Source: Escherichia coli (GTDB lineage: Bacteria; Pseudomonadota; Gammaproteobacteria; Enterobacterales; Enterobacteriaceae). From it: a stretch of DNA of 64,000 bases. The notes under the pieces were generated by a model that was not told the DNA's origin, did no database searches, and worked only from the letters and a program-made list of their open reading frames with translations. This document shows, one piece after another, positions 51,747-64,000 of the stretch. A program made the translations under genes and the position numbers. Each line of letters begins with the position of its first letter. Within the stretch, counting starts at the first letter, position 1. The DNA is taken from the NCBI RefSeq assembly GCF_003018115.1, contig NZ_CP027457.1; one strand, written 5' to 3'.

Positions 51747-52070
51747 TTACAGCAGCACATCCAGCCCGTGTTTTTGCACAATGCTGAGCAGTTTTAATGA
51801 AATGCCATTGGGGCGTTTAGCGCCACTTTCCCATTTTTGTACAGTTGAAACGCTGGTATTGAGATAGTGAGCGAAGACGGGCTGACTCACTTTTAATTTT
51901 TCCCGCAGTGCTTTTATCTCAACAGGTTGTAAGTCTTGCACGCTGGTCAGGCAGGCTTTGTCAAAAGTACGCATTGTTTCGGCAGAAATAGCATCGACGC
52001 TGGACAATCCAGCCGCTGCGCTGTGAATAGCCTCAAATGCAGGACTTTTAAATTTAGTTTTTGCAGTCAT
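51747..52070 (-). CDS. Putative antitoxin with C-terminal XRE-type HTH (HigA-like)
   Basis: 107-aa ORF MTAKTKFKSPAFEAIHSAAAGLSSVDAISAETMRTFDKACLTSVQDLQPVEIKALREKLKVSQPVFAHYLNTSVSTVQKWESGAKRPNGISLKLLSIVQKHG; its ATG overlaps the stop of the upstream 119-aa gene by 17 nt. Confidence 0.6.
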   Translation of the reverse strand: MTAKTKFKSPAFEAIHSAAAGLSSVDAISAETMRTFDKACLTSVQDLQPVEIKALREKLKVSQPVFAHYLNTSVSTVQKWESGAKRPNGISLKLLSIVQKHGLDVLL

Positions 52071-52413
52071 AGCAGATCTCTGTCAGTTCTTTAGTGTTAA
52101 TCATTGCTGTTAGCTGGGCTTTCGTCAGGAAGGCATAATGCTTTGCAAGTTCACGAAACCCAGCCAGTTCCTGACTATTGATGTTCGACATATCCTGTTT
52201 TGCATATAAAAACGTGTAAAACCAATTGCTTCCCCCTTTTGCCAGAATAATTGCACGCTCACGATTTTGGTGAAGGCGCTTTTTAAAAACGCCACCACCA
52301 AGTGCATCAGCTTTACCTTGCTCCGTTTCTAAAATGGCCCGGCACAACTCTTCATCTGTTATTGCATGAGACCTGGCTTCCCTTGCAAACCATTTGGTTT
52401 TAAACACGCGCAT
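52054..52413 (-). CDS. Putative type II toxin (RelE/HigB superfamily, Gp49-like), encoded upstream of its antitoxin
   Basis: 119-aa ORF MRVFKTKWFAREARSHAITDEELCRAILETEQGKADALGGGVFKKRLHQNRERAIILAKGGSNWFYTFLYAKQD...; small and basic, paired with an HTH partner in toxin-first order. Confidence 0.55.
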   Translation of the reverse strand: MRVFKTKWFAREARSHAITDEELCRAILETEQGKADALGGGVFKKRLHQNRERAIILAKGGSNWFYTFLYAKQDMSNINSQELAGFRELAKHYAFLTKAQLTAMINTKELTEICYDCKN

Positions 52414-52640: not shown

Positions 52641-53825
52641 ATGAGTGAATTTATTGCCGAAAACCGCGGCGCGGATGCCATCACCCGACCGAACTGGTCA
52701 GCCGTTTTCTCGGTGGCGTTTTGCGTCGCCTGTCTGATTATCGTTGAGTTTTTGCCCGTCAGTTTGTTGACGCCAATGGCCCAGGATTTAGGCATTTCGG
52801 AAGGGGTTGCCGGGCAATCGGTGACCGTGACCGCCTTTGTGGCAATGTTTGCCAGTTTGTTTATTACCCAGACAATTCAGGCCACTGACCGCCGCTACGT
52901 TGTTATTTTGTTTGCCGTTTTGCTGACGCTCTCCTGTTTGCTGGTTTCCTTTGCTAACTCATTCAGTTTGCTTTTAATTGGTCGTGCCTGTCTGGGGCTG
53001 GCGCTGGGCGGGTTCTGGGCGATGTCGGCGTCGCTGACCATGCGTCTGGTGCCGCCGCGTACGGTGCCGAAGGCGCTGTCGGTGATCTTCGGTGCGGTTT
53101 CTATTGCGCTGGTGATTGCCGCGCCGTTGGGCAGTTTTTTAGGCGAGCTTATCGGTTGGCGCAATGTCTTTAATGCGGCGGCGGTGATGGGCGTGTTGTG
53201 TATTTTCTGGATTATCAAATCATTGCCTTCGCTGCCAGGCGAACCCTCGCATCAGAAACAAAATACTTTCCGCTTATTACAACGTCCGGGTGTGATGGCA
53301 GGGATGATCGCCATCTTCATGTCTTTCGCCGGGCAGTTTGCTTTCTTCACGTATATTCGCCCGGTGTATATGAACCTGGCGGGATTCAGCGTGGATGGCT
53401 TAACGCTGGTGCTGTTGAGTTTTGGCATTGCCAGCTTTATTGGTACGTCGCTTTCGTCGTTCATTCTTAAACGTTCGGTAAAACTGGCCTTAGCAGGCGC
53501 GCCGTTAATACTGGCTGTGAGTGCGTTGGTGCTGACGTTGTGGGGAAGCGATAAAATCGTTGCGACCGGCGTGGCGATTATCTGGGGGCTAACTTTTGCA
53601 TTGGTTCCTGTCGGCTGGTCAACGTGGATCACCCGCTCACTGGCCGATCAGGCAGAAAAAGCCGGGTCTATTCAGGTGGCGGTTATTCAGCTTGCTAATA
53701 CCTGTGGCGCGGCAATCGGCGGTTATGCGCTGGATAATATTGGTCTGACTTCGCCGTTGATGTTGTCCGGCACATTGATGTTGCTGACGGCGTTATTGGT
53801 CACCGCAAAGGTGAAAATGAAGTAA
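52641..53825 (+). CDS. nepI: Purine ribonucleoside efflux pump NepI (MFS)
   Basis: ORF 52593..53825; from Met17 the product is [55 protein letters not shown]..., 12-TM MFS. Confidence 0.9.
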
Positions 53826-54026
53826 CGTATTTACAGGAGGGTTATTGCTCTGGCGGGAAAGCTCTCCTGTTCTGCCCCCTGATAACCCTTGATCAGGTAT
53901 TGTTCTTATCTTGTTGTTATTTCCATTATTCCGCCTGTATTCATCATTTGCTAATCATGAATCATCATTTTCCCTCATGTTAAAGAAAGGTCATTTAATC
54001 TGAACGCATAGCGACAGGGATGACAA

Positions 54027-57000
54027 ATGGCAGGGAAAGCGCATGGGAACGGCGATCGTCGGGGCGATAACACCATATGTGGATTGGGGGATCGTTTACG
54101 TCGTCTGACCGCCGGTATTTGCCTGATAACACAAACTATATTCCCTGTTATGGCCGCTGCCCCTACGCATATTAACCATGCGCATTCGGATACTGCCACG
54201 TCACTGATCCTGCCGAACGTTAAAACTATTCCATATACCCTGGGGGCATTGGAATCGCCATCAACGGTCGCGGCACGCTTTGGTATCACCGTTGATGAAT
54301 TACGTCGCCTGAATCAGTTTCGTACCTTTGCGCGGGGCTTTGACAATGTGCGTCAGGGCGATGAAATAGATGTGCCCCTCATTAACAGTAATAGCCTCGA
54401 AGCGCGCAACTTGAAAGCAATGCAGATGGAGCGCGACGGCAAAGATCCGCAAATGCAGGTCGCGGAAGTGGCGCAGCAAAGCGGAACACTTTTAGCTCGC
54501 GATATGGACAGCGAACAGGCGGCGAGTATGGCGCGTGGCTGGGTGGCTTCTTCTGCATCTGCGCAGGCAACGGACTGGCTCAGTCGTTGGGGAACTGCCC
54601 GGGTATCTCTTGGTGTGGATGAAGATTTCAGCCTTAAAAGCTCGTCATTTGAATTTCTCCATCCCTGGTACGAAACGCCGGATAACCTGGTCTTCAGCCA
54701 GCACACACTTCACCGTACGGATGATCGCACTCAAACCAACCACGGTATCGGCTGGCGTTACTTCACCCCGAGCTGGATGTCTGGCGTCAATATGTTTATC
54801 GATCATGACCTGACCCGCTATCACACCCGAACCGGGATGGGCGTTGAATACTGGCGCGATTACCTGAAACTGAGCGGCAACGGTTATCTGCGCCTCAGTA
54901 ACTGGCGTAGTGCACCGGAACTGGACAATGACTATGAAGCACGTCCGGCGAACGGTTGGGATCTTCGCGCTGAAGGCTGGTTACCGGCCTGGCCGCAGCT
55001 GGGCGGCAAGCTGGTCTATGAACAATATTATGGCGATGAAGTGGCGCTGTTTGGTAAAGACGAGCGACAAAACGATCCTCACGCGATTACCGCAGGTTTG
55101 AGTTACACCCCCGTTCCTCTGATCTCCTTTAGTGCCGAGCAACGGCAGGGCAAACAGGGAGAAAACGACACCCGAATTGGTATGGAGTTGACGTTGCAAC
55201 CTGGTCATTCACTGCAAAAACAGCTCGATCCAGCTGAAGTTGCAGCTCGGCGCAGCCTTGTGGGCAGTCGCTATGACCTGGTCGATCGTAATAACAATAT
55301 CGTCCTCGAATATCGCAAGAAAGAGCTGGTACGGCTGACGCTGACCGATCCGCTGAAAGGCAAGCCGGGTGAGGTTAAATCGCTGGTTTCTTCCTTACAG
55401 ACCAAATATGCGCTGAAAGGTTATGACATTGAAGCCGCCGCCCTGCAATCAGCGGGCGGAAAAGTAGCAGTTTCCGGCAAGGATATTCAGGTCACTATTC
55501 CTCCTTACCGATTCACGGCAATGCCTGAAACCGACAACACTTACCCGATAGCGGTTACAGCGGAAGATTCGAAAGGAAATTTCTCCCGGCGTGAAGAAAG
55601 TATGGTGGTCGTGGAAAAATCCACACTAAGCCTCGCCGATTCAACGCTTTCTGTCGATCTGCAAATCCTGCTTGCTGATGGAAAATCAACCTCAACGCTG
55701 ACCTATACCGCGCGAGATTCCAGCGGCAAGCCGATCCCCGGTATGACGTTAAAAACACAGGCAAAAGGTTTGCAGGATTTCGCCTTAAGCGAATGGAAAG
55801 ACAACGGTAACGGAACCTATACCCAAATAGTTACCGCCGGGAAGACGTCTGGCGCGTTATCGCTGATGCCGCAATTTAACGGCGACGATATCGCTAAGAC
55901 GCCAGCGCTGATTGCCATTGTAGCGAATACGGCATCCCGTGCTGACTCCACGATTGAGACAGACCAGGATAATTACGTCGCGGGTAAGCCGATAGTCGTT
56001 AAAGTGACCCTGAGAGATGATAACGGCAACGGGGTTACCGGAAGAAAAGAACTTCTCAAACAAACCGTTAAAGTAGACAACACGAAGGCTGATGCTGTTA
56101 GTGCCTGGACGGAAGAAAGTGAGGGAATTTACAAAGCAAGCTATACGGCCCATCTCATTGGCGACAAATTAACGGCCCAGCTAACGATGCCCGGCTGGCA
56201 AACCAAACATTCGGATGCGTTCAGTATTGCGGGTGATAAAGATACCGCCAAAATCGCTGCGATGCAGATCACCGCGAATAACGCAGTTGCCAGACGCGAT
56301 CACAATACCGTCGCTGTGACGGTCAGGGATGTGCATCAAAATTTACTGCAGGGACAAAATGTTACCTTCACGGTCGTGAATGGTGCGGCGGTTTTTGCCG
56401 ATCCAAACGGCGGTATTGTGACGACAGATAAAGACGGAATTGCCAGCGTTAACCTTGCCAGTGACCAGGCGGTAAACAGTCTTATCAAGGCCGAGATCAA
56501 TGGCAGTAGTCAGTCTGTGGAAGTGAGCTTTATCACTGGCGATATCTCGCAGCTGACCTCCACCATCAAGACGGACGATGTGTCATACACTGCGGGTGGC
56601 AAGATAAAAGTGTCCGTCACCCTTATGGATGAGCAGAAAAACCAGGTGAAAGGGATGGCTTCGCTGCTCGCGGGTAGCGGTGTGGTCGAGGTGAGCGGTA
56701 CAGATAAAAATGAAACGGGTAACTGGAGCGAAGAGTCTGACGGCGTTTATACCACCACCCGAACCGCGAAGATTGCTGGCGATCGCCATTACGCCACGCT
56801 GAAACTATCGACATGGAGTAGCGCGCAGCAATCCGATGCGTATGCCATCCGCGAAAGCGGAGCTGTGCTGGCTTATTCCTCCATCGTTACCGACAAAACG
56901 ACCTACACCGCGGGCGGTGCGATAAAAGTTACGGTGACACTCAAGGATAGCTATGAAAACCTGGTCGGGGGGCAACGAGACGCTATCAACCTGGCTATCC

Positions 57001-60000
57001 AGCTGCCAAATACAAAAGCGGAAAGCATCGCCTGGAATGAAGATCAAAAAGGAATTTATACCGCAACGTATACCGCCTTACTCCCTGGCACCGGTTTAAA
57101 AGCACAGCTACAGATGTCCGGCTGGGCGAACGCTCTGACTTCAAATGATTACAGTATTAGTGGCGATGCCGCCAGCGCACAAATTGTCGCGATGCAAGTG
57201 ACAACGGGTAACCCGGATGTGCTGGCAAATGGCAGCGATCGACATACGGTGAATGTCCGGGTGGAAGATCAGTTTGGCAATGTGCTGCCGGAGCAGACCG
57301 TCACCTTTACGGTGACGAAGGGGGCGGCTGTATTTGCCAATGCAGGGCAGAGCGCAGATATCAGGACGGATGCGCATGGTATGGCAGAGGTTGATCTGAG
57401 CAGTACCGTAGCGGATGCCAGCACTGTTGAGGCTAAGGTCAATCAAAGCAGCGATAGTAAAACGGTGAACTTTGTTGCTGATGTCAGCACGGCGCAGATC
57501 GCTGATCTGGTGGTCATTAAGGATGGCTCAGTGGCAGACGGTTCGACGGCGAACACGCTGCGGGTGAGGGTGACGGATGCGTTCGGTAATGCGCTGGGCG
57601 GGCAGACGGTCAGCGTGTTGGCGGACAACAGCGCAACGGTCGCTCCGACGGTTATCACCGAGCCGGACGGGACGGTGGAGATCTCTGTTACCAGCCAGAC
57701 GGCGGGAGTCAGTGCGGTCACCGCCAGTATCAACAACAGCAGCCTGAGCCGGAACGTGACGTTTGTTGCCGATGTCAGGACGGCGAAGATCGCTGATCTG
57801 GTGGTGATGCAGGACGGCTCAGTGGCAGATGGCACGACGGCGAACACGCTGCGGGCGAGGGTGACCGATGCGTTCGGCAATGCGCTTGCCGGGCAGACGG
57901 TCAGCGTGACTGCAGGCAACAGCGCAACGGTCGCTTCGACAGTGACCACAAAGCCGGACGGCACGGTGGAGATCAGTGTCACCAGCCAGACGGCGGGGAT
58001 CAGTACAGTCACTGCAACCATCAACAGCAGCAGTCAGAGCCGGAACGTGACGTTTGTCGCGGATGTCAGGACGGCGAAGATCGCTGATCTGGAGGTCATT
58101 AAGGATGGTTCAGAGGCGGACGGTGCGACGGCGAACACGCTGCGTGCGAGGGTAACCGATGCATTCGGAAATACGCTTGCCGGACAGACGGTCAGCGTGT
58201 TGGCAGGCAACGGCGCAACGGTCGCTCCGACGGTTATCACCGAGCCGGACGGGACGGTGGAGATCAGTGTCACCAGCCAGACTGCCGGAATCAGTGCAGT
58301 CACTGCAACCATCAACAGCAGTAGTCAGAGTCAGAACGTGACGTTTGTCGCGGATGTCAGGACGGCGAAGATCGCTGATCTGGAGGTCATTAAGGATGGT
58401 TCAGAGGCGGACGGTGCGACGGCGAACACGCTGCGTGCGAGGGTAACCGATGCGTTCGGCAATGCGCTTGCCGGGCAGACGGTCAGCGTGACTGCAGGCA
58501 ACAGCGCAACGGTCGCTTCGACGGTGACCACAAAGCCGGACGGGACGGTGGAGATCAGTGTCACCAGTCAGACGGCGGGGAGCAGTACAGTCACTGCCAG
58601 CATCAACAGCAGCAGCCTGAGCCGGGATGTGACGTTTATTGCGGATGTCAGGACGGCGCAGATCGCGGAGCTGGTGGTCATTAAGGATGGTTCAGAGGCG
58701 GACGGTGCGACGGCGAATACGCTGCGGGCGAGGGTGACCGATGCGTTCGGCAATGCGCTGGGCGGGCAGACGGTCAGCGTGTTGGCGGACAACGGCGCAA
58801 CGGTGTCTCCGACGGTTACCACAGAGTCGGACGGGACGGTGGAGATCAGTGTCACCAGCCAGACTGCCGGAATCAGTGCAGTCACTGCAACCATCAACAG
58901 CAGTAGTCAGAGTCAGAACGTGACGTTTGTCGCGGATGTCAGGACGGCGAAGATCGCTGATCTGGAGGTCATTAAGGATGGTTCAGAGGCGGACGGTGCG
59001 ACGGCGAACACGCTGCGTGCGAGGGTAACCGATGCGTTCGGCAATGCGCTTGCCGGGCAGACGGTCAGCGTGACTGCAGGCAACAGCGCAACGGTCGCTT
59101 CGACGGTGACCACAAAGCCGGACGGGACGGTGGAGATCAGTGTCACCAGTCAGACGGTGGGGAGCAGTACAGTCACTGCCAGCATCAACAGCAGCAGCCT
59201 GAGCCGGGATGTGACGTTTATTGCGGATGTCAGGACGGCGCAGATCGCGGAGCTGGTGGTCATTAAGGATGGTTCAGAGGCGGACGGTGCGACGGCGAAT
59301 ACGCTGCGGGCGAGGGTGACCGATGCGTTCGGCAATGCGCTGGGCGGGCAGACGGTCAGCGTGTTGGCGGACAACGGCGCAACGGTGTCTCCGACGGTTA
59401 CCACAGAGTCGGACGGGACGGTGGAGATCAGTCTCACCAGCCAGACGGCGGGCACCAGTGTGGTCACTGCCAGCATCAACAACAGCAGCCTGAGCCAGAG
59501 CGTGACATTTATTGCCGATGTCAGGACGGCGAAGATCGCGGATCTGGTGGTCATTAAGGACGGCTCAGTGGCAGATGGCGCGACGGCGAACACGCTGCGG
59601 GTGAGGGTCACCGATGCATTCGGCAATGCGCTTGCCGGGCAGACGGTCAGCGTGTTGTCGGACAACGGCGCAACGACTGCCCCGACGGTGAGCACAGAGC
59701 CGGACGGGACGGTGGAGATCAGTGTCACCAGCCAGACTGCCGGAATCAGTGCAGTCACTGCAACCATCAACAGCAGTAGTCAGAGTCAGAACGTGACGTT
59801 TGTCGCGGATGTCAGGACGGCGAAGATCGCTGATCTGGAGGTCATTAAGGATGGTTCAGAGGCGGACGGTGCGACGGCGAACACGCTGCGTGCGAGGGTA
59901 ACCGATGCGTTCGGCAATGCGCTTGCCGGGCAGACGGTCAGCGTGACTGCAGGCAACAGCGCAACGGTCGCTTCGACGGTGACCACAAAGCCGGACGGGA

Positions 60001-63000
60001 CGGTGGAGATCAGTGTCACCAGTCAGACGGCGGGGAGCAGTACAGTCACTGCCAGCATCAACAGCAGCAGCCTGAGCCGGGATGTGACGTTTATTGCGGA
60101 TGTCAGGACGGCGCAGATCGCGGAGCTGGTGGTCATTAAGGATGGTTCAGAGGCGGACGGTGCGACGGCGAATACGCTGCGGGCGAGGGTGACCGATGCA
60201 TTCGGAAATACGCTTGCCGGACAGACGGTCAGCGTGTTGGCAGGCAACGGCGCAACGGTCGCTCCGACGGTTATCACCGAGCCGGACGGGACGGTGGAGA
60301 TCAGTGTCACCAGCCAGACTGCCGGAATCAGTGCAGTCACTGCAACCATCAACAGCAGTAGTCAGAGTCAGAACGTGACGTTTGTCGCGGATGTCAGGAC
60401 GGCGAAGATCGCTGATCTGGAGGTCATTAAGGATGGTTCAGAGGCGGACGGTGCGACGGCGAACACGCTGCGTGCGAGGGTAACCGATGCGTTCGGCAAT
60501 GCGCTTGCCGGGCAGACGGTCAGCGTGACTGCAGGCAACAGCGCAACGGTCGCTTCGACGGTGACCACAAAGCCGGACGGGACGGTGGAGATCAGTGTCA
60601 CCAGTCAGACGGCGGGGAGCAGTACAGTCACTGCCAGCATCAACAGCAGCAGCCTGAGCCGGGATGTGACGTTTATTGCGGATGTCAGGACGGCGAAGAT
60701 CGCTGATCTGGAGGTCATTAAGGATGGTTCAGAGGCGGACGGTGCGACGGCGAACACGCTGCGTGCGAGGGTAACCGATGCGTTCGGCAATGCGCTTGCC
60801 GGGCAGACGGTCAGCGTGACTGCAGGCAACAGCGCAACGGTCGCTTCGACGGTGACCACAAAGCCGGACGGGACGGTGGAGATCAGTGTCACCAGTCAGA
60901 CGGCGGGGAGCAGTACAGTCACTGCCAGCATCAACAGCAGCAGCCTGAGCCGGGATGTGACGTTTATTGCGGATGTCAGGACGGCGCAGATCGCGGAGCT
61001 GGTGGTCATTAAGGATGGTTCAGAGGCGGACGGTGCGACGGCGAATACGCTGCGGGCGAGGGTGACCGATGCGTTCGGCAATGCGCTGGGCGGGCAGACG
61101 GTCAGCGTGTTGGCGGACAACGGCGCAACGGTCGCTTCGACGGTGACCACAAAGCCGGACGGGACGGTGGAGATCAGTGTCACCAGCCAGACGGCGGGCA
61201 CCAGTGTGGTCACTGTCAGCATCAACAACAGCAGCCAGAGCCGGAACGTGACATTTATCGCCGATGTCAGGACGGCGAAGATCGCTGAACTGGAGGTCAT
61301 TCGGGATAACGCGGTGGCAGACGGTTCGACGGCGAACACGCTGCGGGCGAGGGTAACCGATGCGTTCGGTAATGCGCTTGCCGGGCAGACGGTCAGCGTG
61401 TTGGCGGATAACGGCGCAACGGTCGCTCCGACGGTCATCACAGGGCCGGACGGTACGGTGGAAATCAGTGTCACCAGCCAGACGGCGGGCACCAGTGTGG
61501 TCACTGCCAGCATCAACAACAGCAGCCTGAGCCAGAGCGTGATGTTTGTCGCCGATATCAGGACGGCGCAGATCGCGGATCTGGTGGTCATTAAGGATGG
61601 TTCAGAGGCGGACGGTTCGACGGCGAACACGCTGCGGGCGAGGGTGACCGATGCGTTCGGCAATGCGCTTGCCGGGCAGACGGTCAGCGTGACGACGGAC
61701 AACGGCGCAACGACTGCCCCGACGGTGAGCACAGAGCCGGACGGCACGGTGGAAATCAGTGTCACCAGCCAGACGGCGGGGATCAGTACAGTCACTGCAA
61801 CCATCAACAACAGCACCCTGAGTCAGAACGTGACATTTATCGCCGATGTCAGAACGGCGCAGATCGCGAGTCTGGAGGTGACGCAGGATAACGCCGTGGC
61901 TGACGGCGCAATGGCGGATATGCTGCGGGCGAGGGTCACCGATGCGTTCGGTAATACGCTTGCCGGGCAGACGGTCAGCGTGATGGCGGACAACGGTGCA
62001 GCGGTCGCTTCGACGATGACCACAAAGCCGGACGGCACGGTGGAGATCAGTGTCACCAGCCAGACGGCAGGAATCAGTGTGGTCACCGCCAGCATCAACA
62101 GCAGCAGTCAGAGCCGGGATGTGACGTTTATCGCCGATATCAGGACGGCGCAGATCGCGGACCTGGTGGTCATTAAGGACGGCTCAGTGGCTGACGGCGC
62201 AATGGCGAATAAGCTGCGGGCGAGGGTCACCGATGCGTTCGGTAATGCACTTGCCGGGCAGACGGTCAGCGTGTTCGCAGGCAACGGTGCCACGACTGCT
62301 CCGACGGTCACCACGCAGCCGGACGGCACGGTGGAGATCTCTGTCACCAGCCAGACGGCAGGCACCAGTGCGGTCACTGCCAGCATTAACAGCAGCAGCC
62401 AGAGCCGGGATGTGACGTTTATCGCCGATGTCAGAACGGCGAAGATCGCTGATCTGGTGGTCATTAAGGACGGCTCAGTGGCAGACGGCGCAATGGCGAA
62501 CACGCTGCAGGTGAAGGTCACCGATGCGTTCGGCAATGCGCTTGGCGGACAGACGGTCAGCGTGACGGCAGGCAACAGCGCAACGGTCACTCCGACGGTC
62601 ACCACGCAGTCGGACGGTACGGTGGAGATCAGTGTCACCAGTCAGACGGCGGGGATCAGTACAGTCACTGCCAGCATCAACAACAGCAGCCTGAGCCGGA
62701 ACGTGACGTTTGTCGCGGATGTCAGGACGGCGCAGATCGCGGATCTGGTGGTCATTAAGGACGACTCAGTGGCCGACGGTGCAATGGCGAATATTCTGCG
62801 GGCGAGGGTGACCGATGCGTTCGGTAATACGCTTGCCGGGCAGACGGTCAGCGTGTTGTCGGACAACGGTGCAACGGTCGCTTCGACGATGACCACAAAG
62901 CCGGATGGCACGGTGGAGATCAGTGTCACCAGCCAGACGGCGGGGATCAGTACGGTCACTGCAACCATCAACAACAGCAGCCTGAGCCGGGACGTGACAT

Positions 63001-64000: not shown

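Follow-up and report, generated by a model that had tools for sequence, protein, structure and literature searches.

What is encoded by the very long plus-strand frame that opens downstream of nepI in this Escherichia coli genome and is still open where the sequence ends? The stretch that we analysed, the window, comprises 64,000 nucleotides (assembly GCF_003018115.1, contig NZ_CP027457.1), and an earlier note, made from its letters, had read this frame as a giant adhesin of the intimin/invasin family. Here we identify the region, with near certainty, as the first ~79% of iatC (air, eaeX), the adhesin gene of the eip/selC-region island between nepI and yicS. The earlier note was right in both observation and interpretation but missed the name that the gene already carries: iatC, air and eaeX are the same. 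A name, a curated NCBIfam model and experimental characterization all exist for the gene, so the feature is one already known; with air in routine use as a virulence-typing marker and a biofilm phenotype in print, its value as a discovery is small.

The name iatC comes from Goh et al. 2019, who cloned the gene from SMS-3-5 (EcSMS35_4024; 8802 bp, 2934 aa) (PMC6714894). The same locus is eaeX or air in EAEC 042, as described by Sheikh et al. 2006 in so far as that work is relayed in PMC4210603 and PMC3256949; by the account in PMC4210603, EilA modulates eaeX and the eip genes in that strain. That eaeX/air and IatC are the same is stated explicitly in one genomic study, and air, the 'enteroaggregative immunoglobulin repeat protein', serves in EAEC studies both as an adhesin and as a routine marker for PCR and virulence typing; mentions of Air occur in 58 papers.

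An uninterrupted frame downstream of nepI

The features at the 5′ end of the locus are as follows.

52641-53825: nepI, 201 nt upstream of the iatC start
53826..54026, + strand: nepI–iatC intergenic region, AT-rich, presumed regulatory region of iatC (sequence read; AGGGA ribosome-binding motif)
54027..64000, + strand: iatC (air/eaeX) coding sequence, 5′ portion, 3324 codons, running past the window end

Translation of 54027-64000 on the plus strand gives 3324 codons with zero stops, as expected from the single uninterrupted frame described in the earlier note; base-by-base translation, named beforehand as the step that could refute that description, left the frame open. A frame of this length excludes a chance origin. 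Its start at 54027 coincides with the start of iatC annotated by RefSeq in relatives (position 21628 of relative locus L001 plus an offset of 32399), and a Shine–Dalgarno-like AGGGA lies 6 nt 5′ of the ATG. A consensus scan of the intergenic region found no sigma-70-like site on its plus strand, and a scan of the same region for a hairpin after nepI returned one, at chance level. Given the published control of eaeX by EilA (PMC4210603), 53826..54026 probably acts as an activator-dependent promoter.

Identity and distribution of the gene

The assignment to iatC is carried principally by the curated model NF040978 (Ve_IatC_Nterm, an equivalog domain), which aligns over its whole length (positions 1–1065 of 1065) with a score of 2763.6 bits (cut-off 2400). 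Other named members of the family were considered and set aside. The intimin model NF033627 (intimin_all), with a cut-off of 1400, reaches 424.4 bits and matches the barrel region only; for SinH, YchO, Ilp and YrIlm, too, the scores are far under the respective NCBIfam cut-offs (YrIlm, 414 bits against 750). A comparison with SinH and intimin had been proposed in the earlier note, and both models lie far below threshold. The N-terminal 1150 aa of the window protein are 98.2–99.7% identical in amino acid sequence to those of 15 annotated alleles.

A 4-kb probe spanning nepI and the 5′ part of the gene, scored as present when at least 80% covered, found iatC adjacent to nepI in 747 of the 5426 complete E. 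coli genomes (~14%), where it is annotated as 'iatC: inverse autotransporter adhesin IatC' or as 'air: inverse autotransporter adhesin EaeX/Air'. In K-12 genomes iatC is absent, with only nepI matched by a nepI-to-eilA megablast. Both the statement that K-12 has no such gene downstream of nepI and the suspicion of a strain- or lineage-specific distribution were thus well founded.

The eilA side of the locus lies beyond the window and was seen in the loci of relatives (17 of 17, the closest draft contig included). Downstream of iatC in every one of these, the first gene is a convergent eilA, for a HilA-family regulator, followed by an IpaD/SipD-like gene, a hypothetical gene and a SipB/YopB-like gene, and then, in all relative loci examined, by a small open reading frame, a SycD/LcrH-like chaperone gene and yicS, which together delineate the eip island. 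The closest draft relative has the same gene context and differs from the window by 27 mismatches in 13.5 kb. In these respects the locus corresponds to that of SMS-3-5 IatC and EAEC 042 Air/EaeX, which share the gene, its position at nepI, the 97-aa Big_1 unit and (in relatives) the eilA and eip neighbours. For two hypothetical genes elsewhere, between ilvN and uhpA, PADLOC, NCBIfam and Pfam gave no match.

YeeJ, FdeC, IatD and Yersinia ruckeri YrIlm have in common with IatC a long Big_1 passenger, a LysM-type N terminus and a role in biofilm, but they occupy other loci and belong to other NCBIfam families. The repeats of YeeJ and FdeC are divergent, whereas those of IatC are near-identical; almost identical Ig repeats are likewise found in YrIlm.

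Domain architecture of IatC

Four regions precede the repeat array.

54027..54161, + strand: extended N-terminal signal region, aa 1–45, with a basic stretch and hydrophobic core, LTAGICLITQTIFPVMAAA (inferred from translation)
54222..54371, + strand: LysM-like periplasmic segment, ~aa 66–115 (weak Pfam and structure matches)
54471..55295, + strand: inverse-autotransporter β-barrel translocation domain, aa 149–423 (PF11924, 4E1T, 4E1S)
55635..57476, + strand: six divergent barrel-proximal Ig-like domains (Invasin_D3/Big_1), aa 537–1150 (Pfam)

The barrel is the best defined of these. A Pfam search of the first 1200 aa matches IAT_beta (PF11924) at aa 149–423 over the whole length of the model (E = 2.7e-108), and among solved structures the same region matches invasin 4E1T (E = 5.8e-80) and intimin 4E1S (E = 4.2e-68). 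Pfam Ig-like matches follow at aa 537–633, 639–727, 745–836, 843–918 (weak), 950–1022 and 1056–1150. On this order of predicted domains, with a barrel N-terminal to an Ig-like passenger, IatC is a type Ve inverse autotransporter.

The domain order claimed earlier is upheld for the barrel and for the tandem Ig-like passenger, and less firmly for the two segments that precede them. At the extreme N terminus, where the earlier note had placed an extended signal region, the translation has a run of basic residues ahead of a hydrophobic core (aa 24–45). Periplasmic LysM domains occur only in the larger members of type Ve. In IatC the Pfam search, which had been suggested in advance and which recovered both the IAT β-barrel and Big_1, gives for LysM a weak and partial match at aa 77–98 (E = 0.14; model positions 8–29 of 43). 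Solved structures matched by the segment include 4UZ2 (E = 0.0015, first half only) and LytE (E = 0.026); matches to the designed dTor repeat proteins in the PDB were discarded as additive noise over many weak stretches. Goh et al. 2019 also predicted a LysM in IatC, together with Big_1 repeats and a C-type-lectin cap (PMC6714894). A LysM fold for aa ~66–115 is plausible on these sequence matches.

The same architecture bears on the likeness to the giant Ig-repeat adhesins of the SiiE/BapA kind, which are type I-secreted and whose long arrays of near-identical bacterial Ig-like domains superficially resemble that of IatC. A protein of that kind is refuted by the full-length IAT β-barrel N-terminal to the passenger. 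Moreover, in relatives no type I secretion genes flank iatC, and the C terminus is an invasin-like tip with no RTX-type secretion signal, and we give the type I reading next to no credence.

Type Ve architecture, a homologous barrel and a Big_1/Invasin_D3 passenger are shared between IatC and both the invasin of Yersinia pseudotuberculosis and the intimin of EPEC/EHEC. The passenger differs in scale: some 36 Ig-like domains are predicted in IatC, mostly near-identical tandem copies, against 4–5 in invasin or intimin, in keeping with the earlier remark that it is far longer than either.

An array of near-identical 97-aa units

From the end of the proximal domains to the end of the window the passenger consists of a single array, within which two places distinguish this allele from its closest finished relative.

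57477..64000, + strand: array of 97-aa (291-nt) Big_1 units, 22 complete plus 40 aa of unit 23
60387..60968, + strand: units 11 and 12, identical copies in tandem (exact repeat of 309 nt, offset 291)
61551..61841, + strand: unit 15, the second unit missing from F9792 (unit-level alignment)

A single array is called by Tandem Repeats Finder at 57480-64000 (period 291 nt, 22.4 copies, 87% matches, no indels), and at the protein level a unit boundary motif recurs at a spacing of exactly 97 aa, 22 times running. Each unit is one Big_1 domain (10 of 10 units tested, E = 1e-18 to 2.4e-20). The highly repetitive Ig-like passenger described in the earlier note is therefore borne out as a 97-aa Big_1 array. 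DNA identity between units is 81–100% (median 87%); units 4, 6, 9, 11 and 12 are mutually ~100% identical, the pairs 3/10 and 16/22 are 98–99% identical, and the longest exact internal repeats extend to 504 nt. The G+C content of the array is 0.60–0.63, against 0.46–0.54 in its flanks.

The differences that do exist between units fall preferentially at third codon positions (4423, compared with 1941 at first and 2215 at second positions), and no variation occurs in 50 of the 97 columns. This distribution is consistent with that expected for a translated, constrained domain. Low-scoring NCBIfam matches within the array (acylphosphatase, PurS, NadN, lipo_with_rSAM and post-PEP-CTERM) contain no individually significant stretch and were rejected as repeat-driven noise.

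Repeat number varies among intact alleles

The length of the array was compared with those of relatives locus by locus in 16 annotated loci, as the pieces of a nepI-to-eilA megablast did not join across the array. Of these finished alleles 15 are intact, the exception being that of ETEC6334, a frameshifted and C-terminally truncated air pseudogene. The intact alleles contain 11, 14, 16, 18, 19, 19, 20, 20, 20, 20, 22, 22, 23, 25 and 25 units (2933–4292 aa), which substantiates the earlier suggestion of a length-variable adhesin.

The closest finished allele is that of F9792 (ETEC O169:H41, WP_099490873.1, 3996 aa, 22 units), with 99.6% DNA identity to the window over the N-terminal 3450 nt. 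Aligned unit by unit, the window is the F9792 array with two extra units, namely one copy of the duplicate at 60387-60968 and unit 15. Window units 1–10 correspond to F9792 units 1–10 and units 16–23 to F9792 units 14–21, at 94–100% identity, while unit 13 resembles F9792 unit 12 (98%) and unit 14 resembles F9792 unit 13 (91%); in all, the two arrays are collinear over 21 units (identity 91–100%, and at least 99% in 18 of the units). Units 9 and 11 of GF3-3 are identical to units 14 and 15 of the window, whose array is therefore mosaic, with F9792-like and GF3-3-like members.

If the remainder of the gene follows F9792, the complete allele is predicted to have 24 units and ~4190 aa, its last unit followed by a 712-aa tail that ends in SSPLCMKTF, a stop near 66.6 kb and, ~50 nt farther on, a convergent eilA; the SMS-3-5 protein, by comparison, has 2934 aa, against at least 3324 codons already in the window. 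With at least 23 units, and 24 predicted, the allele in the window is long, yet inside the 11–25 range of finished genomes. Goh et al. 2019 gave a range of 2459–2965 aa for IatC and found "no evidence" for variability in tandem-repeat number (PMC6714894). The finished genomes contradict that remark, a modest correction that brings no new kind of feature.

Could the array itself be at fault, its repeat number a product of mis-expansion or mis-ordering during assembly and the extra-long allele unreal? Because five of the units are identical, the exact unit count in the window could be wrong, and exact repeats of up to 504 nt also occur within the array. Mishandling of iatC by short-read assemblies is moreover conspicuous among the 120 best database homologues, of which 46 are one-unit forms of 1959–1964 aa, made up of the N terminus, one unit and the tail, and many others are 'partial' proteins that stop inside the array. 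In one of the former (P0001) the single unit is a chimera, matching the distinctive first unit over its opening 22 aa and the last unit of F9792 over its final 90 aa; one-unit chimeras of this sort are typical of the collapse of an array in short-read assembly. The error known from these cases is nevertheless contraction, not expansion. Counts of 11–25 units occur independently in finished genomes, and the collinearity with F9792 over 21 units is perfectly in frame. We therefore consider it quite unlikely that the repeat number in the window is an artefact. As short-read assemblies often reduce the array to one chimeric unit or break the contig there, published air/iatC sizes, presence/absence calls and 'partial' labels are unreliable without long reads.

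A further alternative to an intact adhesin gene is that iatC is a pseudogene in this strain, interrupted past the window or unexpressed, as a decaying remnant of the eip island. There is precedent in the air pseudogene of ETEC6334 and in the complete iatC found in only 4 of 126 genomes by Goh et al. (PMC6714894), and another island-associated gene in the window (39706-41001) has a premature stop. Against this, all 9974 nt of the gene that lie within the window are stop-free, 15 of 16 finished alleles are intact and the codon-position bias between units is consistent with selection on the protein. A pseudogene is accordingly very improbable, and iatC is probably intact, its 3′ end, stop codon and tip domain lying beyond the window.

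Export, the distal tip and function

Export of a C-terminal passenger through the barrel by way of a hairpin is established for intimin and invasin. By homology to these two proteins, we infer that IatC takes a Sec/barrel route. The signal region would carry the protein through Sec, the LysM-like segment would remain in the periplasm and a 12-stranded barrel would insert in the outer membrane, with the C-terminal passenger threading out through it in a hairpin. Outside the cell the passenger would extend as a rod of some 36 Ig-like domains (6 proximal, ~24 near-identical Big_1 and ~6 distal), bearing a lectin-type tip like D4–D5 of invasin that would be encoded past the window end. Such a rod should hold the tip more than 100 nm off the cell surface and so favour surface colonization and biofilm.

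Relatives allow the tip to be described. Beyond its last unit the F9792 protein has 712 aa with further Ig-like domains and Invasin_D4 (Pfam, E = 1.6e-12), and the last 300 aa match residues 296–460 of invasin 1CWV, the D4–D5 lectin-like superdomain (E = 8.7e-18). The D4–D5 region of invasin is thus homologous to the tip of IatC relatives. The 15 intact alleles divide into three tail types, ending in PLCMKTF, GLCVEYY and ALCLQEF.

Two views of what the adhesin does can be weighed against these observations. Overexpressed in K-12, IatC of SMS-3-5 was located at the surface and caused strong biofilm formation, with no autoaggregation and no binding of extracellular-matrix proteins (Goh et al. 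2019, PMC6714894); the biofilm factor suspected in the earlier note is, for this allele, a published one. Alternatively, by analogy with intimin and the LEE, the main role might be attachment to host cells in concert with the adjoining translocon of a type III secretion system (eipB/C/D, SipB/C/D-like), the tip binding a host or translocated receptor. The gene is co-located with the eip genes and, from the accounts that cite the original work, reportedly co-regulated with them by EilA, and in the same accounts a defect in eilA changed adherence to epithelial cells. Homology of the tip to the integrin-binding D4–D5 of invasin points the same way, and three divergent tip variants suggest diversification driven by receptors. 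The overexpression phenotype, however, is one of biofilm, with neither matrix-protein binding nor autoaggregation (PMC6714894); most strains have a degraded ETT2 secretion system, air had no association with diarrhoea in a study in Mali, and, in contrast to invasin and intimin, IatC is not known to bind a receptor such as integrin or Tir. Host attachment as the main role would on balance be somewhat unlikely, and colonization of surfaces and biofilm remain the functions that we favour.

How the array changes in length is suggested by its own structure. The 11–25-unit alleles, together with the exact tandem duplication specific to the window, argue for unequal recombination in iatC. Homologous recombination between misaligned 291-nt in-frame units, which share exact stretches of up to ~500 nt, would add or remove whole domains.

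It is tempting to go further, and we do so tentatively, in the belief that what follows is possible rather than probable. The number of 97-aa units in IatC may be a fast-evolving, selected trait, in which in-frame unequal recombination tunes reach against the thickness of O antigen or capsule and three exchangeable lectin-like tips retarget the adhesin to different receptors. If so, the step from 11 to at least 25 units would amount to a difference in reach of ~50 nm, and IatC would be a modular adhesin, variable in both length and specificity, of a kind explicitly not seen in the sole functional study. The tip variants, of which there are at least three, would be where to look for receptor specificity.

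Variation and annotation of iatC

Three different C-terminal tips, ending ...PLCMKTF, ...GLCVEYY and ...ALCLQEF, were found among the alleles of iatC (also named air or eaeX), the giant inverse-autotransporter adhesin gene, at the relatives' loci L001–L017. The tip variants lie in the C-terminal 712–717 residues, beyond the end of the window, and because they are carried on N-termini that are 98–99.7% identical, they suggest that the putative receptor-binding domain is exchanged as a module.

In draft assemblies, dozens of 'complete' IatC proteins of 1,959–1,964 residues contain one unit only of the tandem Big_1 array (database homologues P0001–P0046; locus L010). The single unit of P0001, the only one-unit form dissected, is a chimera of first and last units. 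Many EaeX/Air database entries are 'partial', terminating within the array. IatC annotations in draft genomes are systematically too short. Gene decay is exemplified by the pig ETEC strain ETEC6334 (locus L009, 15386–21801), in which air is frameshifted and truncated, with a remnant of its 3′ end covered by a separate 882-nt 'hypothetical' ORF.

Composition and opposite-strand ORFs of the array

The G+C content of the repeat array (57000–64000) is 0.58–0.63, versus 0.46–0.54 in adjacent genes, and its GC skew is strongly positive; this composition is probably due to the Ala/Gly/Val/Thr/Asp-rich unit rather than to foreign origin. Numerous long ORFs (57141–63562), recurring at multiples of 291 nt, occupy the minus strand within the array, including:

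60896–61816, minus strand, ORF of 306 aa
59150–59770, minus strand, ORF of 206 aa

These were rejected as genes, being shadow ORFs of the G+C-rich repeat.

Neighbouring loci

The adhesin island lies a short way downstream of a pair with overlapping ORFs (119 and 107 aa), located between yicN and nepI and annotated identically in all of the relatives examined:

51747–52413, minus strand, RelE/ParE-family toxin and helix-turn-helix antitoxin

Two 'hypothetical protein' genes are inserted between ilvN and uhpA:

39706–41001, plus strand, gene 1
41257–42696, plus strand, gene 2, intact, 479 aa

Codon 113 of gene 1 is a premature stop, a one-nucleotide change from the intact copy in the relative GF3-3 that probably makes it a pseudogene in the window strain. 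Neither gene had a match in PADLOC or NCBIfam, and the gene 2 product had none whatever in Pfam. The insert varies among strains, comprising 1,296 + 1,440 nt versus 483 + 1,104 or 483 + 1,260 nt.
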